This document shows, piece after piece, positions 1-9,150 of a DNA stretch of 10,632 nt (its first letter is position 1; each line of letters starts with the position of its first letter). The DNA comes from a virus (Duplodnaviria > Heunggongvirae > Uroviricota > Caudoviricetes): positions 1 through 10,632 of the IMG/VR virus record IMGVR_UViG_2675903650_000012; one strand, written 5' to 3'. The notes below the pieces were generated by a model that saw nothing but the letters and a program-made list of their open reading frames with translations, searched no databases and was not told where the DNA came from. The position numbers and the translations under genes are program-made.

Positions 1-164
1 CCGGAAGTTACAGGACAATGGCAGGAGGAAAACTACAGCCCGCAATACGAAAAAGGCCACGCAGTTGCGCAGCCTTATGAATTCTGGTTAAAATCCATTC
101 GATTATAAAAATGTATATCTCATGCTGTTGCCCGAACCCACTCAGGCTTTTTTTTGCCCACAAG

Positions 165-395
165 AAAGCCCCTCCGGAGAGGGGCTAAAGCCGCGTATCT
201 GTATCATCATGCACATGGTGCCGGGTGCCTCCCGGTGAGTTCAGCCCGGTGCCACTAAACCCGCGTCATTCTCGTTTTGATAATCAGAAATTATACCGTC
301 ACCAGTCGCCCCTCCGCTCAGGGGGATTCACCATGCGAAATTTTTTTAACAAATGCCCAGTCTGACAGGCAACTGTCAACTTACTGAATTGTGAG
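165..395. repeat. Structured repeat module, copy A: GC hairpin (168..185), ~120-bp imperfect palindrome closed by catggtg/caccatg (214..336), and conserved downstream blocks
   Basis: Identical or near-identical blocks shared with copy B: aaagcccctccggagaggggct; catggtgccgggtgcctcccggtgagttcag; gcccctccgc(t/a)cagggggattcaccatgc; ttttaacaaa; ca(a/g)c(t/a)gtcaac; ctgaattgtgag. The sequence between blocks has diverged. Confidence 0.6.
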
Positions 396-430
396 CAACA
401 TAGCATTTAACGGGGAACCTGTTTTCTGCA

Positions 431-459
431 GTAAAAAGGCCCACCGGAGCGGATGGGCC
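431..459 (-). terminator. Candidate rho-independent terminator on the minus strand, between the two repeat modules
   Basis: Stem ggccca/tgggcc (438..443 / 454..459) with a 10-nt loop; on the minus strand the hairpin is followed by a run of five T (complement of A 433..437). Confidence 0.45.
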
Positions 460-651
460 TGGAAGGATAGCGGTCATGTGATGCCGGTTTCCCGGTAACT
501 CAGCACCGGTATCTGAGTCAACGTTTTCTCTACTGGGTCATTTCCGATACGCCCTGCCTGCTGACAGGCTTTCATCACATCTGAAAATATAGCACCCTGA
601 CTGATACTGTAGTACCCAAGGTTCCAGAAACTGTGATGTATCCGGCACAGA

Positions 652-878
652 AAAGCCCCTCCGGAGAGGGGCTGGAGAGTGGCGCTATGTGCCATTGCAT
701 GGTGCCGGGTGCCTCCCGGTGAGTTCAGTATCAGCACCTGAACCCGCACAGAAAGGATAAGGGTCGGTGACAAAACACCAGTTGCTGATTGCCCCTCCGC
801 ACAGGGGGATTCACCATGCCAGTTTCTTTTAACAAACTCCCCGCAAACCAGACAACAGTCAACCGCCTGAATTGTGAG
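652..878. repeat. Structured repeat module, copy B (paralog of 165..395): hairpin 655..672, palindromic core 698..819
   Basis: Same ordered conserved blocks as copy A with different intervening sequence; the gttcag...ctgaac hairpin is perfect here and has one mismatch in copy A. Confidence 0.6.
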
Positions 879-1002
879 GTATTTAAAAATTTCAACGGGT
901 AACTGATACCCTGCTAATCGCCTGATGCTTTCTTTTTCAGCAACGGGAAAGCAACAACCACCACACCCACCAGCCGCCCATTTACCACAAATAAAAAATC
1001 CT

Positions 1003-1200
1003 TCACTGCGGAAGGCGTCTGTAACAACCGAACTGATAGTCTGCCAGACCCGCCATAACCAGCTGGGTCAGTATTAACTGGCAGCGTTCGCGTGAAAGGT
1101 AAGTATTCTGCGCAATCTCCCCGACTGTCGCCGGTTCGGTGGCACTTAATTCATTAAACACCACTCTGGCGGTTTCTGTCATATCCTGCTGTTTTAGCAT
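1003..1200 (-). CDS. Small hypothetical protein (65 aa) with an HTH/winged-helix-like segment, downstream of Q
   Basis: Taken from the internal ATG (MLKQQDMTETARVV...) of the 1003..1293 ORF, preceded by a purine-rich gggaaaaagac; the upstream GTG start in the track lacks an RBS and would overlap the terminator region. The segment ATVGEIAQNTYLSRERCQLILTQLVMAGLA resembles a DNA-binding HTH. Confidence 0.45.
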   Translation of the reverse strand: MLKQQDMTETARVVFNELSATEPATVGEIAQNTYLSRERCQLILTQLVMAGLADYQFGCYRRLPQ

Positions 1201-1320
1201 GTCTTTTTCCCTTTTCCGGTTAACGTGACACACCAATAACTCTTGTCGAAAAAGCCAGCAAGCTGAAAGACCGGTATTCACCACCACCAGCACGTTTACT
1301 GTACTGATGCGATTTCAGTC

Positions 1321-1347
1321 ATAAAAAACCCGCCAGGCGGCGGGTTT
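1321..1347 (-). terminator. Strong intrinsic terminator directly downstream of Q (tR'-like position)
   Basis: Perfect 6-bp GC stem cccgcc/ggcggg (1329..1334 / 1339..1344) with a 4-nt loop; on the minus strand it is followed by six T (complement of A 1323..1328). It lies ~60 nt after the Q stop codon. Confidence 0.65.
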
Positions 1348-1404
1348 AAGTTGTGTGGCGTAGTAACCACTCTTAACATACTGACATACTTTTTGCGGAC
1401 CGCG

Positions 1405-1797
1405 CTAATCATTTTTTACTTTTTTGGGCAGCCAGTCGTCCATCTCCAGCCTTACACCCAGCATCGACAGACATCCGTCAATAAATCCTTCAGCAATCTG
1501 CATCTCAATTCGTATTGCCTTTTCGCTCTTCTTTCTTGTTCTGGCAATCTGCCTTTTTGATATGCGCAGCAGATAATGAGCTACCAGCAGCGAATACTCG
1601 TCCGGTTTTTTCTTCTTCAGGCGCGTAAGGCAGTTTTCGATGATAAGGCCGTCATCATCGCTGCAGGCCGGGCGAGGTTTAGCGGTGGATGGTAAAAGGC
1701 CTTTAAATCCAGCAGCTATCGGAGAATAGTCCACCCCGGCGTTACCACTTGCCGCCCATGCCCCCCAGCGTTCGAGAACCATCTGAATATCACGCAT
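1405..1797 (-). CDS. Q: Late-gene antitermination protein Q (QuuD/phage-21-type Q family)
   Basis: Translation from the ATG at 1797 (MRDIQMVLERWGAWAA ... RLEMDDW...), with GGAG 7-10 nt upstream; the track start at 1812 is a TTG. The N-terminus and the ~130-aa length match my memory of E. coli cryptic-prophage Q proteins (QuuD-like). It is the last gene of the nin-region operon. Confidence 0.7.
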   Translation of the reverse strand: MRDIQMVLERWGAWAASGNAGVDYSPIAAGFKGLLPSTAKPRPACSDDDGLIIENCLTRLKKKKPDEYSLLVAHYLLRISKRQIARTRKKSEKAIRIEMQIAEGFIDGCLSMLGVRLEMDDWLPKKVKND

Positions 1798-1814
1798 CAA
1801 CTTTCTCCACAAAA

Positions 1815-2810
1815 TCAGGACAGCACACCAATCGCCAGCGCGCGATCGATAAAACGAAATATCAGCTCCAGCTGGGAGCCATACTTCTCTTCAAATGCCA
1901 CGGTATCCGCATGCAGCTCGTCGTGATGCTTTCTGCACAAAGGCAACACAAAGAGGTCATGCGCTTTTGTAGCCATTCCACCCTGACCGTGACCTATCAG
2001 GTGGTGGGGATCATCAGCAGGCTTTCCACAACATGCGCACGGCTGCGTCTTAACCCAGCGCGTGTACTTTTCATTAACCCAGCGGCGACGTTTTGGGCGT
2101 AACATAAAAGACTCCGGCGACTCCGGATCCACTTTCAGCGCCAGCACCTTTTTCGCTTTATCCCGGATAATACTGGTGGCGGGAACCGAAGGCACAAGGT
2201 CACTTTCCCGGGTGACAGACGGCACAACCGTCTTCGGTAATCTCAGTACCTTACGGGCTGCACTTTCCGGTAAGGCATCCGCCAGGTCATTACGAATCAG
2301 CCACCAGCACAGTTCCGGCATTGTCACAACGTGACTGTCATCAAAACCGAGATCCCGACGCACAACAGACAACACCCAGCGGGCACAGTTATCCGTTGCC
2401 ATTGATTCCAGCCGTTCCGTGAACTGATCGCGCAGCTGGTTATCGCAGTGCCAGCACAGACGGATTGCGCCCGGAGCGTGTCGCATTGTGGTCATGTTCT
2501 CGCTGTGCCATCCGGAATGAGGCCACTGGCAGCCTTTTTCACGAAGTAACCAGCTTTCAAGACATTCCACGCCACCAGCACGACGGATCACTGCCTCATG
2601 GCGGAACACGGACCGAACGGCAGGATCATCCGCCAGCGGTTGTGATGCCGCCGGAACGGCACCACTGGCGAAAGATGAATAACGCTCCGGCTCAGGCTCC
2701 AGCAGGACACGCCCCTGCATAAACAGGGGCATCAGCTCTGAACCTGGCCTGAACAATACGATCCCCATACGCGGGGCAATTTCAGGGGTCAGTAGTGCTC
2801 TCACAGTCAC
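1815..2810 (-). CDS. DUF968-like phage protein (YdfU-like) with a C-terminal Cys/His zinc-finger or HNH-like motif
   Basis: 331-aa ORF; C-terminus CACCGKPADDPHHLIGHGQGGMATKAHDLFVLPLCRKHHDELH (C-x2-C ... HH ... C ... HH ... H). It sits immediately upstream of Q, as ydfU does in Qin-like prophages (from memory). Start uncertain: GTG at 2810 or GTG at 2804 behind a GAGG. Confidence 0.7.
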   Translation of the reverse strand: MTVRALLTPEIAPRMGIVLFRPGSELMPLFMQGRVLLEPEPERYSSFASGAVPAASQPLADDPAVRSVFRHEAVIRRAGGVECLESWLLREKGCQWPHSGWHSENMTTMRHAPGAIRLCWHCDNQLRDQFTERLESMATDNCARWVLSVVRRDLGFDDSHVVTMPELCWWLIRNDLADALPESAARKVLRLPKTVVPSVTRESDLVPSVPATSIIRDKAKKVLALKVDPESPESFMLRPKRRRWVNEKYTRWVKTQPCACCGKPADDPHHLIGHGQGGMATKAHDLFVLPLCRKHHDELHADTVAFEEKYGSQLELIFRFIDRALAIGVLS

Positions 2811-2811
2811 C

Positions 2812-3627
2812 TCAATGAACGGTATCGAGCAGCTTTAACAGCTCAGGAAATCGGGATTCGAAGAAATGCGGCTGCGTCTCGCGCGGATTTGCAGGACTGG
2901 TGATGTTCTTGCCGAACATGCAGCCTTTCGCGGTCAGCGACCAGAATTTTTTGATGTTGTTAATCGCGGTACGGCTGTATCGTTCGCGTTGTTCAACGAT
3001 CCCCAGCTTCGCCATCTGGTGATATGCCTGATTAGCCGTCAGGCGGATACCATACTGCTTCAGCAGTGCACTCAGCGACAGCGTAGGGCGGCTTGAACCA
3101 TCTGGCGCATCAGCAGGTGCATCAATGGCATAGATCGGCATAAGTTCAGGAAGACCAGCTACCTTTGATAATTTCTGGTATGCACCAAGTTTCGAGGAGT
3201 TTGACAGATTTAGAGTCTTTGCTGCTGATTCAAGCAGAATGACCCCGGATTTAATTTTGTCGGATGTGGTTTCTTCTGGTGATGAATTATGAAGCGCATC
3301 AAAAGTACGTATCACTTTTAAGCTGAATGCCGGGCTGATCCACATTGCATATGCATAGACCAGCTCTTTACAGACATACGTCCCACCATTGCGCCCCTGA
3401 ATGGTGATGACAGGAATACTACGGGAATCTCCCGTAGTTTCTTCTTCCAATAATTCCACAAGAGCCTTCGTTTCAGGACGACGCATAAACTCGTGAACTT
3501 CCAGCGAACGGGAGGAGCGATTCTCACCAGCGGCAAGAAGAGCAGCTTTCTGAAGGTCGTTAAGACAGTAGTTAGATTCGAAGTACTGGCGCACAGAAAC
3601 GCCATCAATTACAAGCAACTGATTCAT
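2812..3627 (-). CDS. KilA-N domain protein
   Basis: Translation from the ATG at 3627 (MNQLLVIDG...), with GGAG 7-10 nt upstream. KilA-N hallmark GGTYVCKELVYAYAMWISPAFSLKVIRTFD. The C-terminal half (from about residue 150) is a separate, unassigned region. Confidence 0.75.
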   Translation of the reverse strand: MNQLLVIDGVSVRQYFESNYCLNDLQKAALLAAGENRSSRSLEVHEFMRRPETKALVELLEEETTGDSRSIPVITIQGRNGGTYVCKELVYAYAMWISPAFSLKVIRTFDALHNSSPEETTSDKIKSGVILLESAAKTLNLSNSSKLGAYQKLSKVAGLPELMPIYAIDAPADAPDGSSRPTLSLSALLKQYGIRLTANQAYHQMAKLGIVEQRERYSRTAINNIKKFWSLTAKGCMFGKNITSPANPRETQPHFFESRFPELLKLLDTVH

Positions 3628-3724
3628 TGGTTTCTCCACAAATTTTTATCCACGAGCGGGACTGCACTCCCTTTTCGTTGATGCAGGATGAACTTACTGC
3701 GATTTTTAATAGTTATCAAGGATA

Positions 3725-3744
3725 CACTGTTCATAAATACAGTA
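3725..3744. promoter_or_regulatory. LexA-box-like palindrome (SOS-box candidate) upstream of the KilA-N/DUF968/Q genes
   Basis: CACTGTTCATAAATACAGTA: CTGT (3727..3730), an 8-nt AT-rich spacer, ACAG (3739..3742); 16 of 20 positions match the consensus TACTGTATATATATACAGTA as I recall it. Flanked by GATAC (3721..3725) and GTATC (3742..3746). Lies in the 160-bp gap between rusA and the KilA-N gene. Confidence 0.4.
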
Positions 3745-3789
3745 TCTTTAACGAGGTAATACCCAAATTTAGGGTGTTGCTCAATTCCG

Positions 3790-4185
3790 TTACCGAGTTG
3801 CTAATTTGCAACTCGCTTTTTCGTACTTACTGATAGTGATCTCGACCTTCCCTTCCGGGATAACCGGTCCCCACTCCACCAGCATTCTTTTCACCTGGCT
3901 GTCGTCTTCCCACACACCCGCGTGGGTCAGGGCGTCAAACAGCGCCTTGTTATAGTTGTCCAGATCGCGGATCCGGTTATCCGGAGGAAACAACACGATC
4001 TCCACTGAAGCAGGTGCCGACGTTGGTTTCGGCAGACGACGTAACTGCTCAACTATTGCTGCACACGCCGCGCTCTGGAATTTTCGCCCCGCCGCGCTTA
4101 TCAGGCTCTTACCAGCAAACGCCCCTTTGTTGGGGTGTCGCCAGTACGTGTTCACGCTGGGCGGAAAAGGCAGTATTAGCTTCAT
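3790..4185 (-). CDS. rusA: Crossover junction endodeoxyribonuclease RusA (Holliday junction resolvase)
   Basis: 131 aa; N-terminus MKLILPFPPSVNTYWRH resembles RusA (...LPWPPSNNRYYRH) and the catalytic-region motif RIRDLDNYNKALFDAL is present. The ATG overlaps the upstream stop (ATGA). Confidence 0.9.
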   Translation of the reverse strand: MKLILPFPPSVNTYWRHPNKGAFAGKSLISAAGRKFQSAACAAIVEQLRRLPKPTSAPASVEIVLFPPDNRIRDLDNYNKALFDALTHAGVWEDDSQVKRMLVEWGPVIPEGKVEITISKYEKASCKLATR

Positions 4186-6209: not shown

Positions 6210-6430
6210 GCCACACCTCCCAGACGCTTAAACATTTTTCCGGAGCAAAAGGCTATAAGCGGCATACTGATGCGGTAATTACGGCCCAGCGGTTCACAAA
6301 TCACCTTCTGACATTCACGGTCAACCAGGCTGACACGTAGAACATGCCCTGCAGGCGTGGTGTACCACTGACCAGGACGAGGACAACGGAAAGTCTGATT
6401 GGTAAACCGTTTGAAAATATTCCGGATCAT
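6206..6430 (-). CDS. Hypothetical protein (74 aa)
   Basis: ATGA overlaps with both neighbours; same strand and operon context. No family recognised. Confidence 0.45.
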   Translation of the reverse strand: MIRNIFKRFTNQTFRCPRPGQWYTTPAGHVLRVSLVDRECQKVICEPLGRNYRISMPLIAFCSGKMFKRLGGVA

Positions 6431-7587
6431 TTGCGCCCCCTTACCTCTGAAGGGTTCAGCGACAAATTTATGAGACTGGCCAGTAGCGCCGCGTCGTTGA
6501 TGCGGTCATACAGACTTACAGCCAGCGGGGATTCGGCTTTTGCCAACATGGGATAAAGCTGCTGCAGCCAGACCTTGTGGATTACCGACAGGTGGGAGTA
6601 AAGCACGCTGGCGTTATCTGCGGCATCGCTCAGCGTGGATGGCTTTGAAAGCAGTTTTTCCATCTGGTTAAAGGCATTGATGTATGCCTCTTTGAACCGG
6701 GCAGCACGTTTACCCGTGAAACCCATAGCAAGAAACGCAAAACCGTCTCGTGTGATTTGATAGCAAGGGAGCTTGCGTGTACCACCGTTCGGTTGATTTA
6801 CCGAAATCGATGTCTCCGCAAAATTGCGGGCACAAAACTCTGGGGAACAATCCAGAGTGCGGATCTTTTTCAGCACATCGTCGTGACGCTTGGAGAAGGA
6901 GTTGGCAACAGCCAAAGAAGTGGTAACGGCCTGGCCGTTGTCAATGGTGATTTCAGGTTGAGTGAGGGCTGGGATCGTAGCCATGATGGCAGCCTCCGTT
7001 GACAGTGAAAAACTTCCACCACCGGAAACGCCAATTTCACTGGTGGTGAACTGGACGGGGTTGGCGTAACCGGCGTCAACGGAGACCGGCGCACCTTTCG
7101 GTGCCCCCGCCCAGCCCACCATAATCTGGATGTGAGCAAATGCGGACGATAAAAAAGACGCTGGCGCGTCATACATCGCCGTTGACAATTTCAGGACGCC
7201 AATCCCGGCACCCGCTTTATAAGGTGCCTGAACAGTGTAACGTCCCGGAATGGCAGAATCAATGTGCTGGTGGTCCTTCACACTCAACAAAATCACGCCT
7301 GAATTTCCACAAAGGACTAAAGCACTCATGCTGGTAGTCTTTGCGAAGATAGATAACGCGCTGTGTTTCTGGCTCCCAACGAATAACATGAACATAAAGT
7401 CCTCTTCCGTCACGAAACCAGCGGTTAAGTTCCTGCACAACTCGCCCCCCACAGTCAGGTAAAGTTCTCTGTGGTTACTTACAGCCAGGTGATTTGGTAA
7501 TCTGCATTCATGCCGTAACAACAGGTGTTCAGCGACGCTGACCACCAGCTGTTGCGACAAACGGTTATTTGCCGTTAAACTATTCAT
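6427..7587 (-). CDS. Rha-family phage regulatory protein with a ~200-aa N-terminal extension of unknown function
   Basis: Residues ~205-320 (MATIPALTQPEITIDNGQAVTTSLAVANSFSKRHDDVLKKI...YQITRDGFAFLAMGFTGKRAARFKEAYINAFNQMEKLL) match the Rha N-terminal domain. The ORF continues in frame ~200 aa upstream (Gly-rich linker VSGGGSFSLS) and its ATG overlaps the stop of the CII-like gene (ATGA at 7584..7587). Confidence 0.65.
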   Translation of the reverse strand: MNSLTANNRLSQQLVVSVAEHLLLRHECRLPNHLAVSNHRELYLTVGGELCRNLTAGFVTEEDFMFMLFVGSQKHSALSIFAKTTSMSALVLCGNSGVILLSVKDHQHIDSAIPGRYTVQAPYKAGAGIGVLKLSTAMYDAPASFLSSAFAHIQIMVGWAGAPKGAPVSVDAGYANPVQFTTSEIGVSGGGSFSLSTEAAIMATIPALTQPEITIDNGQAVTTSLAVANSFSKRHDDVLKKIRTLDCSPEFCARNFAETSISVNQPNGGTRKLPCYQITRDGFAFLAMGFTGKRAARFKEAYINAFNQMEKLLSKPSTLSDAADNASVLYSHLSVIHKVWLQQLYPMLAKAESPLAVSLYDRINDAALLASLINLSLNPSEVRGRK

Positions 7588-8475: not shown

Positions 8476-9150
8476 ATGAAAACAGTCCATGACATCCGGC
8501 GGTCTAACGCCAGAAAACTGAGAGATGGTGTTGGCGGGAATTCTTCCTTTGCCACCATGATTGATCGCGAGCCAACCCAGACCAGCAGGTTTATGGGAGA
8601 TGGTGCTACTAAAAATATCGGTGACAGCATGGCACGGCACATCGAAAAATGTTTCGACCTGCCTGTCGGATGGCTTGATCAAGAACACCAGACAACAAAC
8701 ATCACAAAAAAACCTGATGTTTCAATTACTAACAAACAAATAACGTTAGTCCCTGTCATATCATGGGTACAGGCCGGAGCATGGAAAGAAGTTGGCTATT
8801 CTGAGGTTGATTTGAGCACAGCAGAAACTTATCCCTGCCCTGTACCCTGTGGCGAAATGACTTATATCTTGCGGGTGATTGGTGATTCAATGATTGATGA
8901 GTACCGCCCGGGAGACATGATTTTTGTAGATCCTGAAGTCCCTGCCTGCCACGGTGACGACGTTATTGCATTGATGCACGATACAGGCGAAACCACCTTT
9001 AAGCGGTTGATAGAAGATGGAACACAGCGTTACCTCAAAGCATTAAACCCAAACTGGCCTGAACCTTACATTAAGATCAACGGTAATTGCTCTATAATTG
9101 GCACAGTAATTTTCTCAGGAAAACCAAGAAGATACAAAATAAAGGCCTAA
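8476..9150 (+). CDS. cI: CI/C2-type prophage repressor (HTH N-domain plus S24 LexA-like autopeptidase C-domain)
   Basis: 224 aa; C-domain LVPVISWVQAGAWKEV...VIGDSMIDEYRPGDMIFVDPEV...TFKRL...LKALNPNWPEPYIKINGNCSIIG closely resembles P22 C2 / lambda CI. Catalytic Ser (GDSM) and Lys (TFKRL) are present, as is an Ala-Gly candidate cleavage site (VQAGAW). Confidence 0.9.
   Translation: MKTVHDIRRSNARKLRDGVGGNSSFATMIDREPTQTSRFMGDGATKNIGDSMARHIEKCFDLPVGWLDQEHQTTNITKKPDVSITNKQITLVPVISWVQAGAWKEVGYSEVDLSTAETYPCPVPCGEMTYILRVIGDSMIDEYRPGDMIFVDPEVPACHGDDVIALMHDTGETTFKRLIEDGTQRYLKALNPNWPEPYIKINGNCSIIGTVIFSGKPRRYKIKA

Follow-up and report, generated by a model that had tools for sequence, protein, structure and literature searches.

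A probable Shiga-toxin-phage-type PR'/tR' switch and an ordinary accessory segment between the Q gene and the lysis genes of a lambdoid prophage

In lambdoid prophages of the Shiga toxin (Stx) type, a Q gene without adjoining lysis genes is normal: a variable segment (methylase, tRNAs, toxin, sRNAs, esterase) separates PR'/tR' from the lysis cassette, and the published Stx-phage order is Q, PR'/tR', accessory genes, nanS-p, and S-R-Rz. Annotated Stx2a phages have Q, a small ORF, a methylase gene, tRNAs, stx2AB, nanS-p, and a holin gene, in that order. In Sp5/933W, PR' is reported to be constitutive, with its transcripts terminated in lysogens; the Sp5 start was mapped by dRNA-seq at 1,266,203, and the transcript reportedly runs 258 nt to a distal tR', is cut by RNase E (GU|AUU) at +173, and is processed to the 74-nt StxS (PMC7547250). 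Phage 21 (6P18, 6JNX; OL657228) has its promoter, PR'21, no more than 10 nt from the Q stop, with a consensus −35, a Q-binding element made of two 8-bp direct repeats (ATTGAGCA/AATGAGCA) whose last base overlaps the −10, and an ~50-nt leader ending at an intrinsic terminator, right after which come tRNAs and then the holin gene. Among the accessory elements, STnc100 has been located 75 nt downstream of stx2, and its RNA has been found in vesicles from STEC cultures (PMC12370729). Its relatives, the PasD sRNAs, were abundant in EPEC in RIL-seq and northern blots; such elements lie between Q and a sialate esterase gene, and multiple copies are usually far apart (bioRxiv 10.64898/2026.05.13.724894). 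Phage 1720a-02 carries a methyltransferase (MTase) very similar to M.EcoGII (PMC5778455).

We analyzed the region downstream of the Q gene on the minus strand of a 10,632-nt stretch of viral DNA, referred to here as the window. Judged from its sequence, this region is very probably an ordinary Stx-phage-type PR'/tR' late-gene switch of a lambdoid prophage. The segment between Q and the lysis genes is an ordinary accessory segment, neither a deletion nor a new system, and the arrangement matches the published Stx-phage architecture and is in that sense already known. The methylase-tRNA-stx block is absent, and its space is taken by STnc100, present as two complete copies and a degenerate one. 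The result counts chiefly as a negative one, in that such an arrangement is not to be taken for prophage decay. For annotation and experiments, it could also supply a reference layout for PR' promoters of this class, in which the dyad, the −10, the start-site box, and the first hairpin are positioned by the published start of Sp5 and which can be carried over to other loci. The elements of the switch are as follows.

1405..1797, minus strand: Q antiterminator gene, 130 aa from ATG (RefSeq places the start one codon earlier), with its TAG stop codon at 1407..1405.
1395..1403, minus strand: dyad GCGGTCCGC, directly 3' of the Q stop, at −32..−24 from the predicted start; candidate Q-binding element.
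1374..1389, minus strand: 8-bp direct repeat GTATGTCA/GTATGTTA, the repeat singled out in the first-pass annotation.
1378..1383, minus strand: predicted PR' −10, CAGTAT, which aligns with TATCAT of Sp5.
1363..1375, minus strand: near-invariant box TAAGAGTGGTTAC, holding the putative start, A1371, and the first transcribed bases.
1321..1347, minus strand: intrinsic terminator AAACCCGCCGCCUGGCGGGUUUUUUAU of the tR' type, which would end a leader of ~49 to 51 nt.

The Q protein matched PF06530 over its full length (176.1 bits, cut-off 26; E = 2.8e-52) and phrog_79 (1.1e-47), is homologous over residues 8 to 86 to the solved Q21 structures 6p18 and 6jnx (E = 1.4e-7), and is 48% identical to the 933W/Sp5-type Q. 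These matches assign it to the PF06530 family of antiterminators (Q21/Q933W type), and it is predicted to antiterminate at its own PR'. We propose that Q would be made from the end of the early-right operon and that PR' would lie directly 3' of the Q stop, comprising the dyad, the −10, and, within the box, a start near A1371. When Q is absent, transcripts would stop after ~50 nt at the hairpin-U terminator, giving a short terminated leader RNA comparable to StxS or to the 6S RNA of lambda. Q loaded at the promoter-proximal site would allow RNA polymerase to pass tR' and five more co-oriented terminator-like hairpins, and readthrough would then span the 1.3-kb accessory segment and reach nanS-p, the holin, lysozyme, and Rz genes, and the morphogenesis genes just beyond the window. 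Positions 1 to 2000 hold 10 terminator-like sites, compared to an expected 2.4 ± 1.6, and all 10 are on the minus strand.

The accessory segment contains the following features.

1284..1291, minus strand: Chi site GCTGGTGG, in the interval from tR' to the small gene; several related loci have it as well.
1225..1262, minus strand: conserved promoter-like or operator box of 38 nt upstream of the small gene (CTTGCTG, 12 nt, AGAGTTATTGGTGTGTCAC).
1003..1200, minus strand: 65-aa winged-helix gene (WP_000917742.1, phrog_331), identified by profile match and AlphaFold.
991..1015, minus strand: weak hairpin with a T-run, overlapping the small-gene stop (scan site 1015..1000).
963..981, minus strand: invariant stretch ATGGGCGGCTGGTGGGTGT, containing a Chi site at 974..967.
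643..848, minus strand: STnc100 copy 1 (RF02076; 141.4 bits, gathering score 47; full-length 1-206), with a terminator at 673..654.
431..604, minus strand: degenerate STnc100-like module (30.1 bits, below the gathering score; E = 2.5e-4), with a terminator at 460..437.
156..365, minus strand: STnc100 copy 2 (RF02076; 165.8 bits, gathering score 47; full-length 1-206), with a terminator at 186..167.
100..152, plus strand: AsxR/AgvB-like element (AsxR, 56.5 bits, below the gathering score of 63, E = 8.5e-8; AgvB, 37 bits).
53..76, minus strand: hairpin resembling a terminator, a short way before the nanS-p esterase gene.

The Stx2a phages Stx2_EH2201 (LC567829) and 1720a-02 (KF030445) share Q, PR', the tR' hairpin, and the 65-aa ORF with the window at 92% DNA identity over positions 963 to 1900, the alignment of this part being confined to that interval, and the sequence immediately 3' of stx2B is homologous to window positions 1 to 394. 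They also share the downstream order nanS-p, small ORFs, holin, and endolysin and have an STnc100-like element after the cargo. Between the small ORF and STnc100/nanS-p, however, they carry an M.EcoGII-type methylase gene, three tRNAs, and stx2AB, whereas the window has none of these and has extra STnc100 modules instead. The first-pass annotation had offered, as one of two readings, cargo inserted at a Q-proximal accessory site, and the comparison bears this out: the segment stands where Stx2a phages with the same Q have the methylase gene, tRNAs, and stx2AB.

The 65-aa ORF, initially described as HTH-like, is a genuine conserved gene. Its product matched phrog_331 (2.4e-37), it has 341 homologues across the Enterobacteriaceae, and dN/dS was at most 0.04 to 0.14 where computable, synonymous sites being saturated in every comparison. 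The AlphaFold model (pLDDT, 89.6) has a winged-helix fold; Foldseek gave TM scores of 0.7 to 0.8 to the winged-helix domains of IclR, MarR, and O-methyltransferase proteins but no match at E ≤ 1e-3, which supports a generic winged-helix fold and nothing narrower. The name that NCBI gives to homologues, TrmB family regulator (PF01978), was rejected at 19.1 bits, below the cut-off of 25.6. For the same protein, a PDB sequence search returned nothing meaningful (best hit, YraP; E = 0.28) and NCBIfam returned at most a weak Lrs14 match.

Upstream of this gene, the pattern CTTG, AGAG, and TTAT..T.T.TG of the 38-nt box was invariant or nearly so in 16 aligned loci from different genera, and the box is retained whether the genes before it belong to any of three unrelated Q families or encode tRNAs. 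In the window it reads TTGCTG-17-TATTGG and fails the sigma-70 scan; compared by eye with sigma-54, sigma-32, sigma-S, and sigma-E promoters, it fit none of them. The interval from tR' to the small gene folded no better than shuffled sequences (z = −1.45), and we therefore dropped an RNA-structure explanation of the box.

The repeat modules seen in the first-pass annotation are present and correspond to the two STnc100 copies (848..643 and 365..156) and the degenerate module (604..431). As described previously for such elements, their location is between the Q and sialate esterase genes; they form a tandem array within 700 nt, in contrast to the usual wide separation of multiple copies (10.64898/2026.05.13.724894). 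Copy 2 falls within window positions 12 to 394, which are homologous to DNA downstream of stx2B in Stx2 phages. A TTGAC(A/T) motif lies upstream of each copy at the same distance.

It is possible, if somewhat doubtful, that the small gene and the sRNAs are no more than passengers on the late transcript, without promoters and expressed on Q antitermination only. They are co-oriented and lie between tR' and the late genes; the conserved box, TTGCTG-17-TAT(C/T)(T/G)G, has no T at the key −7 position and was not picked up by the scan; and the M.EcoGII-type methylase that is the usual neighbor of the small gene is reportedly silent in lysogens (PMC5778455). Against this, the box keeps its nucleotide sequence in different genera even though synonymous sites in the gene are saturated, and it is kept regardless of the upstream context; the TTGAC(A/T) motif is equidistant from each STnc100 copy; and PasD sRNAs are abundant in EPEC (10.64898/2026.05.13.724894) and STnc100 RNA is found in STEC vesicles (PMC12370729). 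As worded, the earlier suggestion that this cargo is expressed only on Q-mediated readthrough is not upheld by the promoter-like box, found in all 16 loci, or by the PasD data, and the small gene may have a promoter of its own.

The small gene has a usual partner. An M.EcoGII-type methylase gene, matching PF01555, follows it in 40 of 50 assessable related loci and is missing from the window, where homology to the small-gene/methylase cassette stops at ~963, at the Chi site 3' of the gene. The MTase reported for 1720a-02 (PMC5778455) is likely the methylase adjoining the small ORF in that phage, whose record also annotates a separate Dam-type methylase. The small gene itself, a candidate moron in view of its promoter-like box and the weak hairpin at its end, is variable in its presence, being missing from 933W and from many variants with Q proteins 65 to 79% identical. 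In the homologous Salmonella locus, neither the leader nor the spacer preceding the methylase gene matched a known Rfam family. We speculate, while regarding it as unlikely on balance, that the 63- to 65-aa protein is a dedicated controller of the toxic, nonspecific M.EcoGII-type adenine methylase, acting via its own upstream box, and that the cassette is portable and has been orphaned here. If so, the protein would set when the methylase is expressed as part of the late transcript; the cassette, made up of the terminator, the box, the winged-helix gene, Chi, and the methylase gene, would have become established downstream of no fewer than three unrelated Q/PR' systems; and the orphan regulator would persist here without the methylase and might act on other targets. 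Such a role would resemble that of the C proteins of restriction-modification (R-M) systems, with which the small gene shares a small DNA-binding-fold product, a position directly upstream of a co-oriented methylase gene (in relatives), and a box before the gene. R-M C proteins have an Xre-type HTH, however, whereas this protein is a winged helix without a restriction gene and with a methylase in relatives only; identity as a C protein is ruled out by the fold and by the missing restriction gene, and the resemblance is functional only. For annotation and experiments, it could be useful that this uncharacterized winged-helix gene is recognized as the usual partner of an M.EcoGII-type methylase and that the stx-less arrangement terminates at a conserved Chi site.

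The placement of PR' depends on homology to Sp5, in which the mapped start and the RNase E site both identify the A of TAAG[A]GT as +1 and TATCAT sits 6 nt upstream of the dRNA-seq-mapped start. One locus in our set (L104) is 100% identical to Sp5 across the PR' region, and window positions 1323 to 1379 align with its positions 2949 to 3004; by this alignment, transcription in the window would start at about A1371 and yield a leader RNA of ~50 nt (49 to 51). With the box core, TAAGAGT[AG]GT, as the search anchor, we retrieved all 56 distinct variants, with Q proteins 48 to 100% identical. The −10-like hexamer, the box, and the hairpin are arranged in a fixed way across the 56 variants, and the unit stays together even where Q is 1 to 1.7 kb away (L005, L013, and L021). 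The hexamer is TAnnnT in 44 of them and CAGTAT in the other 12; in the clade of the window it begins with C instead of T. A sigma-70 scan of the minus strand over positions 1 to 2000 found no promoter, and PR' has no recognizable −35. The start-region box is also written TAAGAGTGG.

The dyad occurs once in the window and is found in 51 of the 56 variants at a constant distance from the −10. Other dyads occupy the same place with more distant Q types (TTTACGATCGTAAA in 933W and ATTCGTnACGAAT in L008 and L022). We consider the dyad a better candidate for the Q site than the 8-bp repeat; as such, it would be a Q-binding element of the inverted-repeat type, unlike the direct repeat of Q21. A phage-21-like model, in which Q would bind the repeat GTATGTCA/GTATGTTA as an element with two subsites, AAGAGT is the −10, and transcription starts ~8 nt further downstream, near 1362, is improbable. 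The repeat has the same period as the Q21 element and ends at AAGAGT, and the window Q is a structural relative of Q21. We nevertheless dropped this model because the Sp5 start and the +173 RNase E site put +1 inside TAAGAGT, which is then not a −10, and because the 44 other variants (Q 48 to 79% identical) have no repeat, while nearly all of them keep the dyad. The repeat is confined to a clade with Q proteins at least 91% identical, and variants without it keep the spacing to the dyad. Moreover, a simple count gives 7 places in the window with tandem 8+8 repeats matching at 7 or more of 8 positions, so the repeat alone is statistically unremarkable. The proposal that the repeats form the promoter and pause region stands in part: the second copy supplies the predicted −10, CAGTAT, but the repeat is absent from those 44 variants, and the invariant element, at the start site, is the TAAGAGTGGT box. 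Among the variants compared, the first 25 transcribed nucleotides held no conserved TAnnnT pause-like element.

With PR' placed by homology to Sp5, the first hairpin is a candidate for tR'. The terminator at 1321..1347, previously placed ~60 nt after the Q stop, is confirmed on the minus strand, where it begins 57 nt past the stop. Its folding energy is −15.7 kcal/mol (z = −3.65), a stability reached by none of 200 shuffled sequences; a simple terminator scan overlooked it solely because its stem absorbs three U residues. A hairpin with a T-run follows the start by 31 to 62 nt in 44 of the 56 variants (47 to 62 nt in all but one), with differing loops and two stem types. RNAalifold found no consensus structure for 25 leaders because the two stem types were misaligned, and the variant leaders were instead folded sequence by sequence. 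A weak resemblance of the leader to isrK (16.5 bits; E ~1) was dismissed as chance.

We consider it highly improbable that this hairpin is merely the terminator of the early-right (Q) operon and that the true late promoter lies elsewhere, e.g., before nanS-p or the holin gene. Such a reading would accommodate the poor −35 and the failure to detect a sigma-70 consensus promoter between Q and the hairpin, as well as the finding that the published tR' of Sp5, at +258, is another, more distal hairpin than the homologous first hairpin of Sp5 at +25..+50. It does not accommodate the homology of the box at 1375..1363 to the dRNA-seq-mapped PR' start site of Sp5 or the arrangement of −10, box, and hairpin kept in 56 variants, including those with a distant Q.

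With the Sp5/933W leader (the StxS locus; PMC7547250) the predicted switch shares the Q family, the start-site box ATAAGAGTGGTTAC, and a homologous first hairpin; only positions 1323 to 1379 align, however, the small gene follows the first hairpin, and the post-Q dyad differs. The leader is not StxS, as the distal 200 nt of the Sp5 leader, including StxS, are absent from the window. With phage 21 it shares a related Q structure, a promoter within 10 nt of the Q stop, and an ~50-nt leader ending at an intrinsic terminator, whereas in the window there is no −35, conservation falls on a dyad, and the holin gene comes only after 4.2 kb of cargo.

The window ends before the late genes, and their placement was read from near-identical genomes. 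The statement that Q is not followed by lysis genes holds inside the window (none in positions 1 to 1400). Two genomes, NCTC9112 (99.9% identical over window positions 1 to 4185) and STEC17-183 (99.5% over 1 to 1900), have the nanS-p esterase, DUF1378, DUF826, class II holin, lysozyme, and Rz genes directly downstream in the same orientation; nanS-p starts 54 nt beyond position 1 (L001), and the holin gene starts ~2.8 kb beyond it. NCTC9112 also has terminase and capsid/head genes. The isolated viable phage PhiR5_1, propagated on E. coli C, has the same order in shorter form, with window positions 396 to 651 absent. The first-pass alternative of a cryptic prophage, with its lysis and morphogenesis genes deleted or displaced and the terminator and small gene marking the scar, is extremely unlikely: it would fit the 1.4 kb without a lysis gene next to Q, the missing methylase-tRNA-stx block with its homology break at ~963, and a frameshifted portal gene in NCTC9112, but the co-oriented late genes of both near-identical genomes, the terminase and head genes of NCTC9112, and the similar layout of PhiR5_1 argue against it, and the missing part is accessory cargo rather than late genes. 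Given its portal frameshift, the prophage of NCTC9112 may itself not be fully functional.

The window is a lambdoid prophage with its early-right operon on the minus strand, and its genes are ordered as follows.

8476-9150, plus strand: cI-like repressor gene, named first in the order together with a cII-like gene
6427-7587: Rha/Ash gene, a long ORF containing isrK and C4 RNA matches
between Rha/Ash and Q: replication genes, Dam, RusA, KilA-N, and DUF968
1797..1405, minus strand: Q, with stop codon TAG, at the end of the listed early-right order
1200..1003, minus strand: 65-aa ORF, the next ORF after the leader terminator

The full length of Q matched PF06530 (E = 2.8e-52), and Q21, a protein of solved structure, is a relative (E = 1.4e-7). 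A predicted terminator, AAACCCGCCGCCUGGCGGGUUUUUUAU (1347..1321, minus strand), lies 57 nt past the Q stop; its fold (-15.7 kcal/mol, z = -3.65) was equalled by 0 of 200 shuffles. As the first-pass annotation had reported, Q is followed by this terminator and then by the small ORF, and no lysis gene was found from that ORF down to window position 1. Elsewhere in the window, Rfam matches to isrK (62 bits) and C4 antisense RNA (81 bits) at 7039-7227 (minus strand) fall inside the Rha/Ash ORF. The immunity modules isrK-anrP of Gifsy-1 and c4-ant of P1/P7 show a similar placement, and the annotated ORF may thus have been drawn too long on its 5' side.

That annotation proposed either that the late region was displaced or deleted, as in a cryptic prophage, or that cargo occupied a Q-proximal accessory site. 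Deletion was refuted by near-identical genomes. E. coli NCTC9112 matches window 1-1900 at 99.9% identity, a level that extends across 1-4185, and STEC17-183 matches 1-1900 at 99.5%. In both genomes, the start codon of a SASA-family sialate esterase gene (nanS-p) lies 54 nt past position 1 on the minus strand, and it is followed by DUF1378 and DUF826, by a class II holin gene starting ~2.8 kb past position 1 (4.2 kb from the Q stop), and by lysozyme and Rz genes. In NCTC9112, whose flank was read further, terminase, portal, and capsid genes come next. The isolated phage PhiR5_1, which was propagated on E. coli C, keeps the order Q, small ORF, esterase, holin, R, Rz, and terminase; window 396-651 is missing from it. 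As read from these near-identical genomes, the late region is present, with accessory DNA between it and Q. In the NCTC9112 prophage, the portal gene (L001 3821-5412) carries an annotated frameshift, whether a genuine defect or an error of assembly, and a Dsr1 anti-phage sirtuin gene (L001 27433 onward) lies near the far, immunity-side end of that prophage region.

Comparison with Stx phages favored the cargo reading. Stx2a phages with the same Q allele are 92% identical in DNA across window 963-1900, and their order is Q, 65-aa ORF, DNA methylase, tRNA-Met/Arg/Arg, stx2A, stx2B, nanS-p, two small ORFs, holin, and endolysin. The DNA just 3' of stx2B is homologous to window 1-394. This homology and gene order indicate that the window is an stx-less relative without the methylase-tRNA-toxin block. 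Its architecture is one already known, annotated, and published for Stx phages; the new points are modest, namely, a map of the late promoter (PR') for this Q clade, the pairing of a winged-helix gene with a methylase, and a junction at Chi.

Within 91 nt past its Q stop, phage 21 has TTGACA, a pair of Q sites that are 8-bp direct repeats, a -10, the start, a pause element, and a terminator (10.1101/651190; PMC6606751). Using the fully annotated phage 21 genome, the 8-bp direct repeat GTATGTCA/GTATGTTA at 1389..1374 (minus strand) was at first compared to such a Q site, a reading corrected by the closer relative Sp5/933W (48% Q identity). Window 1323-1379 aligns downstream of that Q with ...TTTACGATCGTAAAAATCTGCATATCATGATAAGAGTGGTTACATTGCC...AACCCGCCGATGCGCGGGTTTTTTT. 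In Sp5, dRNA-seq mapped the PR' start and Term-seq the 3' end 258 nt away, and an RNase E cut, GU|AUU, was mapped at +173 (StxS study, PMC7547250). Sakai Sp5 is 100% identical across this region to L104, our Sp5/933W-type locus, and the GU|AUU site sets the Sp5 +1 as the bracketed A in TAAG[A]GT. The start and -10 of the window, placed by this homology, would be as follows, with a leader RNA of ~49-51 nt; the dyad is listed from the variant comparison below.

1403..1395, minus strand: dyad GCGGnCCGC, -32..-24 from the inferred start
1383..1378, minus strand: putative -10, CAGTAT, in the second copy of the 8-bp repeat
1371, minus strand: predicted start (A)

The proposal that this repeat belongs to the promoter therefore held insofar as its second copy supplies the putative -10, but it is clade specific and no special element. 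Viral contigs (n = 80) and genome loci (n = 18) yielded 56 distinct PR' variants, all of which carry the search anchor TAAGAGT[AG]GT by construction. The hexamer located 6 nt before the start was TAnnnT in 44 and CAGTAT in 12. The dyad GCGGnCCGC stood at a fixed distance in 51/56, and other dyads occupy the same place with more distant Q types (TTTACGATCGTAAA for 933W; ATTCGTnACGAAT for another two loci). This pattern suggests that Q recognises the dyad rather than the clade-specific repeat. The variants had a poor -35 and shared no clear pause element resembling a -10; the -35 and pause parts of the PR' mechanism are putative. In many of the loci L005, L013, L021, and L048-L065 (relatives with Q 53-79% identical), 1-1.7 kb of other DNA separates Q from the dyad/-10/box/hairpin module, so PR' can be separated from its own Q gene; the inserted DNA often ends in a bidirectional terminator right after Q.

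A hairpin and T-run ended 31-62 nt past the start in 44/56 variants (47-62 in all but one), with variable loops and two stem types. The first Sp5 hairpin, AACCCGCCGATGCGCGGGTTTTTTT (L104 2981-3006), is of a good intrinsic-terminator type at +25..+50 of the mapped transcript and is homologous to the leader terminator (tR') of the window, whereas the published tR'/StxS 3' end of Sp5 is at +258. Past that published tR', the methylase gene survives only as its 3' end (L104/L105). Six co-oriented terminator-like hairpins, tR' included, lie between the start and nanS-p, and a terminator scan of 1-2000 found 10 sites, all on the minus strand, versus 2.4 expected. Overcoming such stacked co-oriented terminators is what processive Q antitermination is made for. 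The leader 5' end (1354-1369, minus strand; +3..+18) may form a small hairpin, GUGG(N7-8)CCAC, with variants in other loci (e.g., GUUAC-GUA-GUGAC).

The 65-aa ORF is a genuine gene. It matched phrog_331 (E = 2.4e-37), and its 341 homologues come from Escherichia, Salmonella, Klebsiella, Citrobacter, and Buttiauxella, among others; sampled homologues (n = 19) were 81-97% identical to it. Its synonymous sites are saturated at a dN of 0.07-0.2. Its AlphaFold model (pLDDT 89.6; H-H-H-beta-beta) best matched winged-helix domains of IclR, MarR, and O-methyltransferases in Foldseek (TM 0.7-0.8). The protein missed the TrmB Pfam cutoff (19.1 versus 25.6 bits), and the "TrmB family" label on its homologues is therefore unearned. 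A methylase of ~350 aa matching PF01555 lies 3' of the gene in 40 of 50 assessable loci, across a conserved spacer of 151-186 nt. Phage 1720a-02 is reported to carry a methyltransferase very similar to M.EcoGII, the nonspecific adenine methylase, which stays silent in lysogens and does harm if constitutively expressed (PMC5778455); this methyltransferase is likely the methylase beside the small ORF of that phage, whose record also annotates a separate Dam-type methylase. Upstream of this cassette of small gene and methylase stand Q genes of three unrelated families (PF06530, PF03589, and PF06323) or tRNA genes, and a terminator precedes it in almost every locus. About 30 nt before the small-gene ATG is a box (CTTGCTG, then 12-13 nt, then AGAGTTATCTGTATGTCAC) conserved at the nucleotide level; it resembles a weak sigma-70 promoter (TTGCTG-17-TAT(C/T)(T/G)G) and could serve as an operator as well. 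Our working inference is that the protein regulates the cassette; in the window, the gene is orphaned, without its methylase.

Cassette homology ends at ~963. An invariant stretch with Chi, ATGGGCGGCTGGTGGGTGT (963-981, minus strand), lies 4-5 nt 5' of this end, and in relatives it forms the 5' arm of a long hairpin rich in GC. This break beside Chi suggests that Chi-associated recombination produced the methylase- and stx-less arrangement. Across the 10.6 kb there are eleven Chi sites (GCTGGTGG), versus 0.48 expected from shuffles.

967, 1284, 2301, 2572, 3876, 4805, 5219, 7542, and 7936, minus strand: Chi
4449 and 7266, plus strand: Chi

Two of these flank the 65-aa gene, and 9/11 point the same way as early-right and late transcription, an orientation that would be recognised by RecBCD entering from the cos end.

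The remaining cargo includes copies of the prophage sRNA family STnc100.

848..643, minus strand: full STnc100 copy with its own terminator
604..431, minus strand: degenerate third STnc100-like module (30 bits), between the full copies, with its own terminator
365..156, minus strand: full STnc100 copy with its own terminator
100..152, plus strand: AsxR/AgvB-like element (56.5 and 37 bits, below threshold), adjoining the esterase gene

Known prophage sRNAs located near Q and the esterase include STnc100 and its relatives, PasD; RIL-seq and Northern blots reportedly show PasD to be abundant in EPEC (10.64898/2026.05.13.724894; PMC12370729). Expression of the cargo only by Q-mediated readthrough, as had been proposed, is doubtful for the sRNAs, given this reported abundance, and for the small gene, given its promoter-like box. 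Neither full STnc100 copy has a good -10 at 17 bp after its upstream motif. That motif, CTCACAATTCAG..GTTGAC(A/T)GTTG, lies at equal distance upstream of both (383-388 and about 857-862, minus strand) and could be a shared -35 and promoter.
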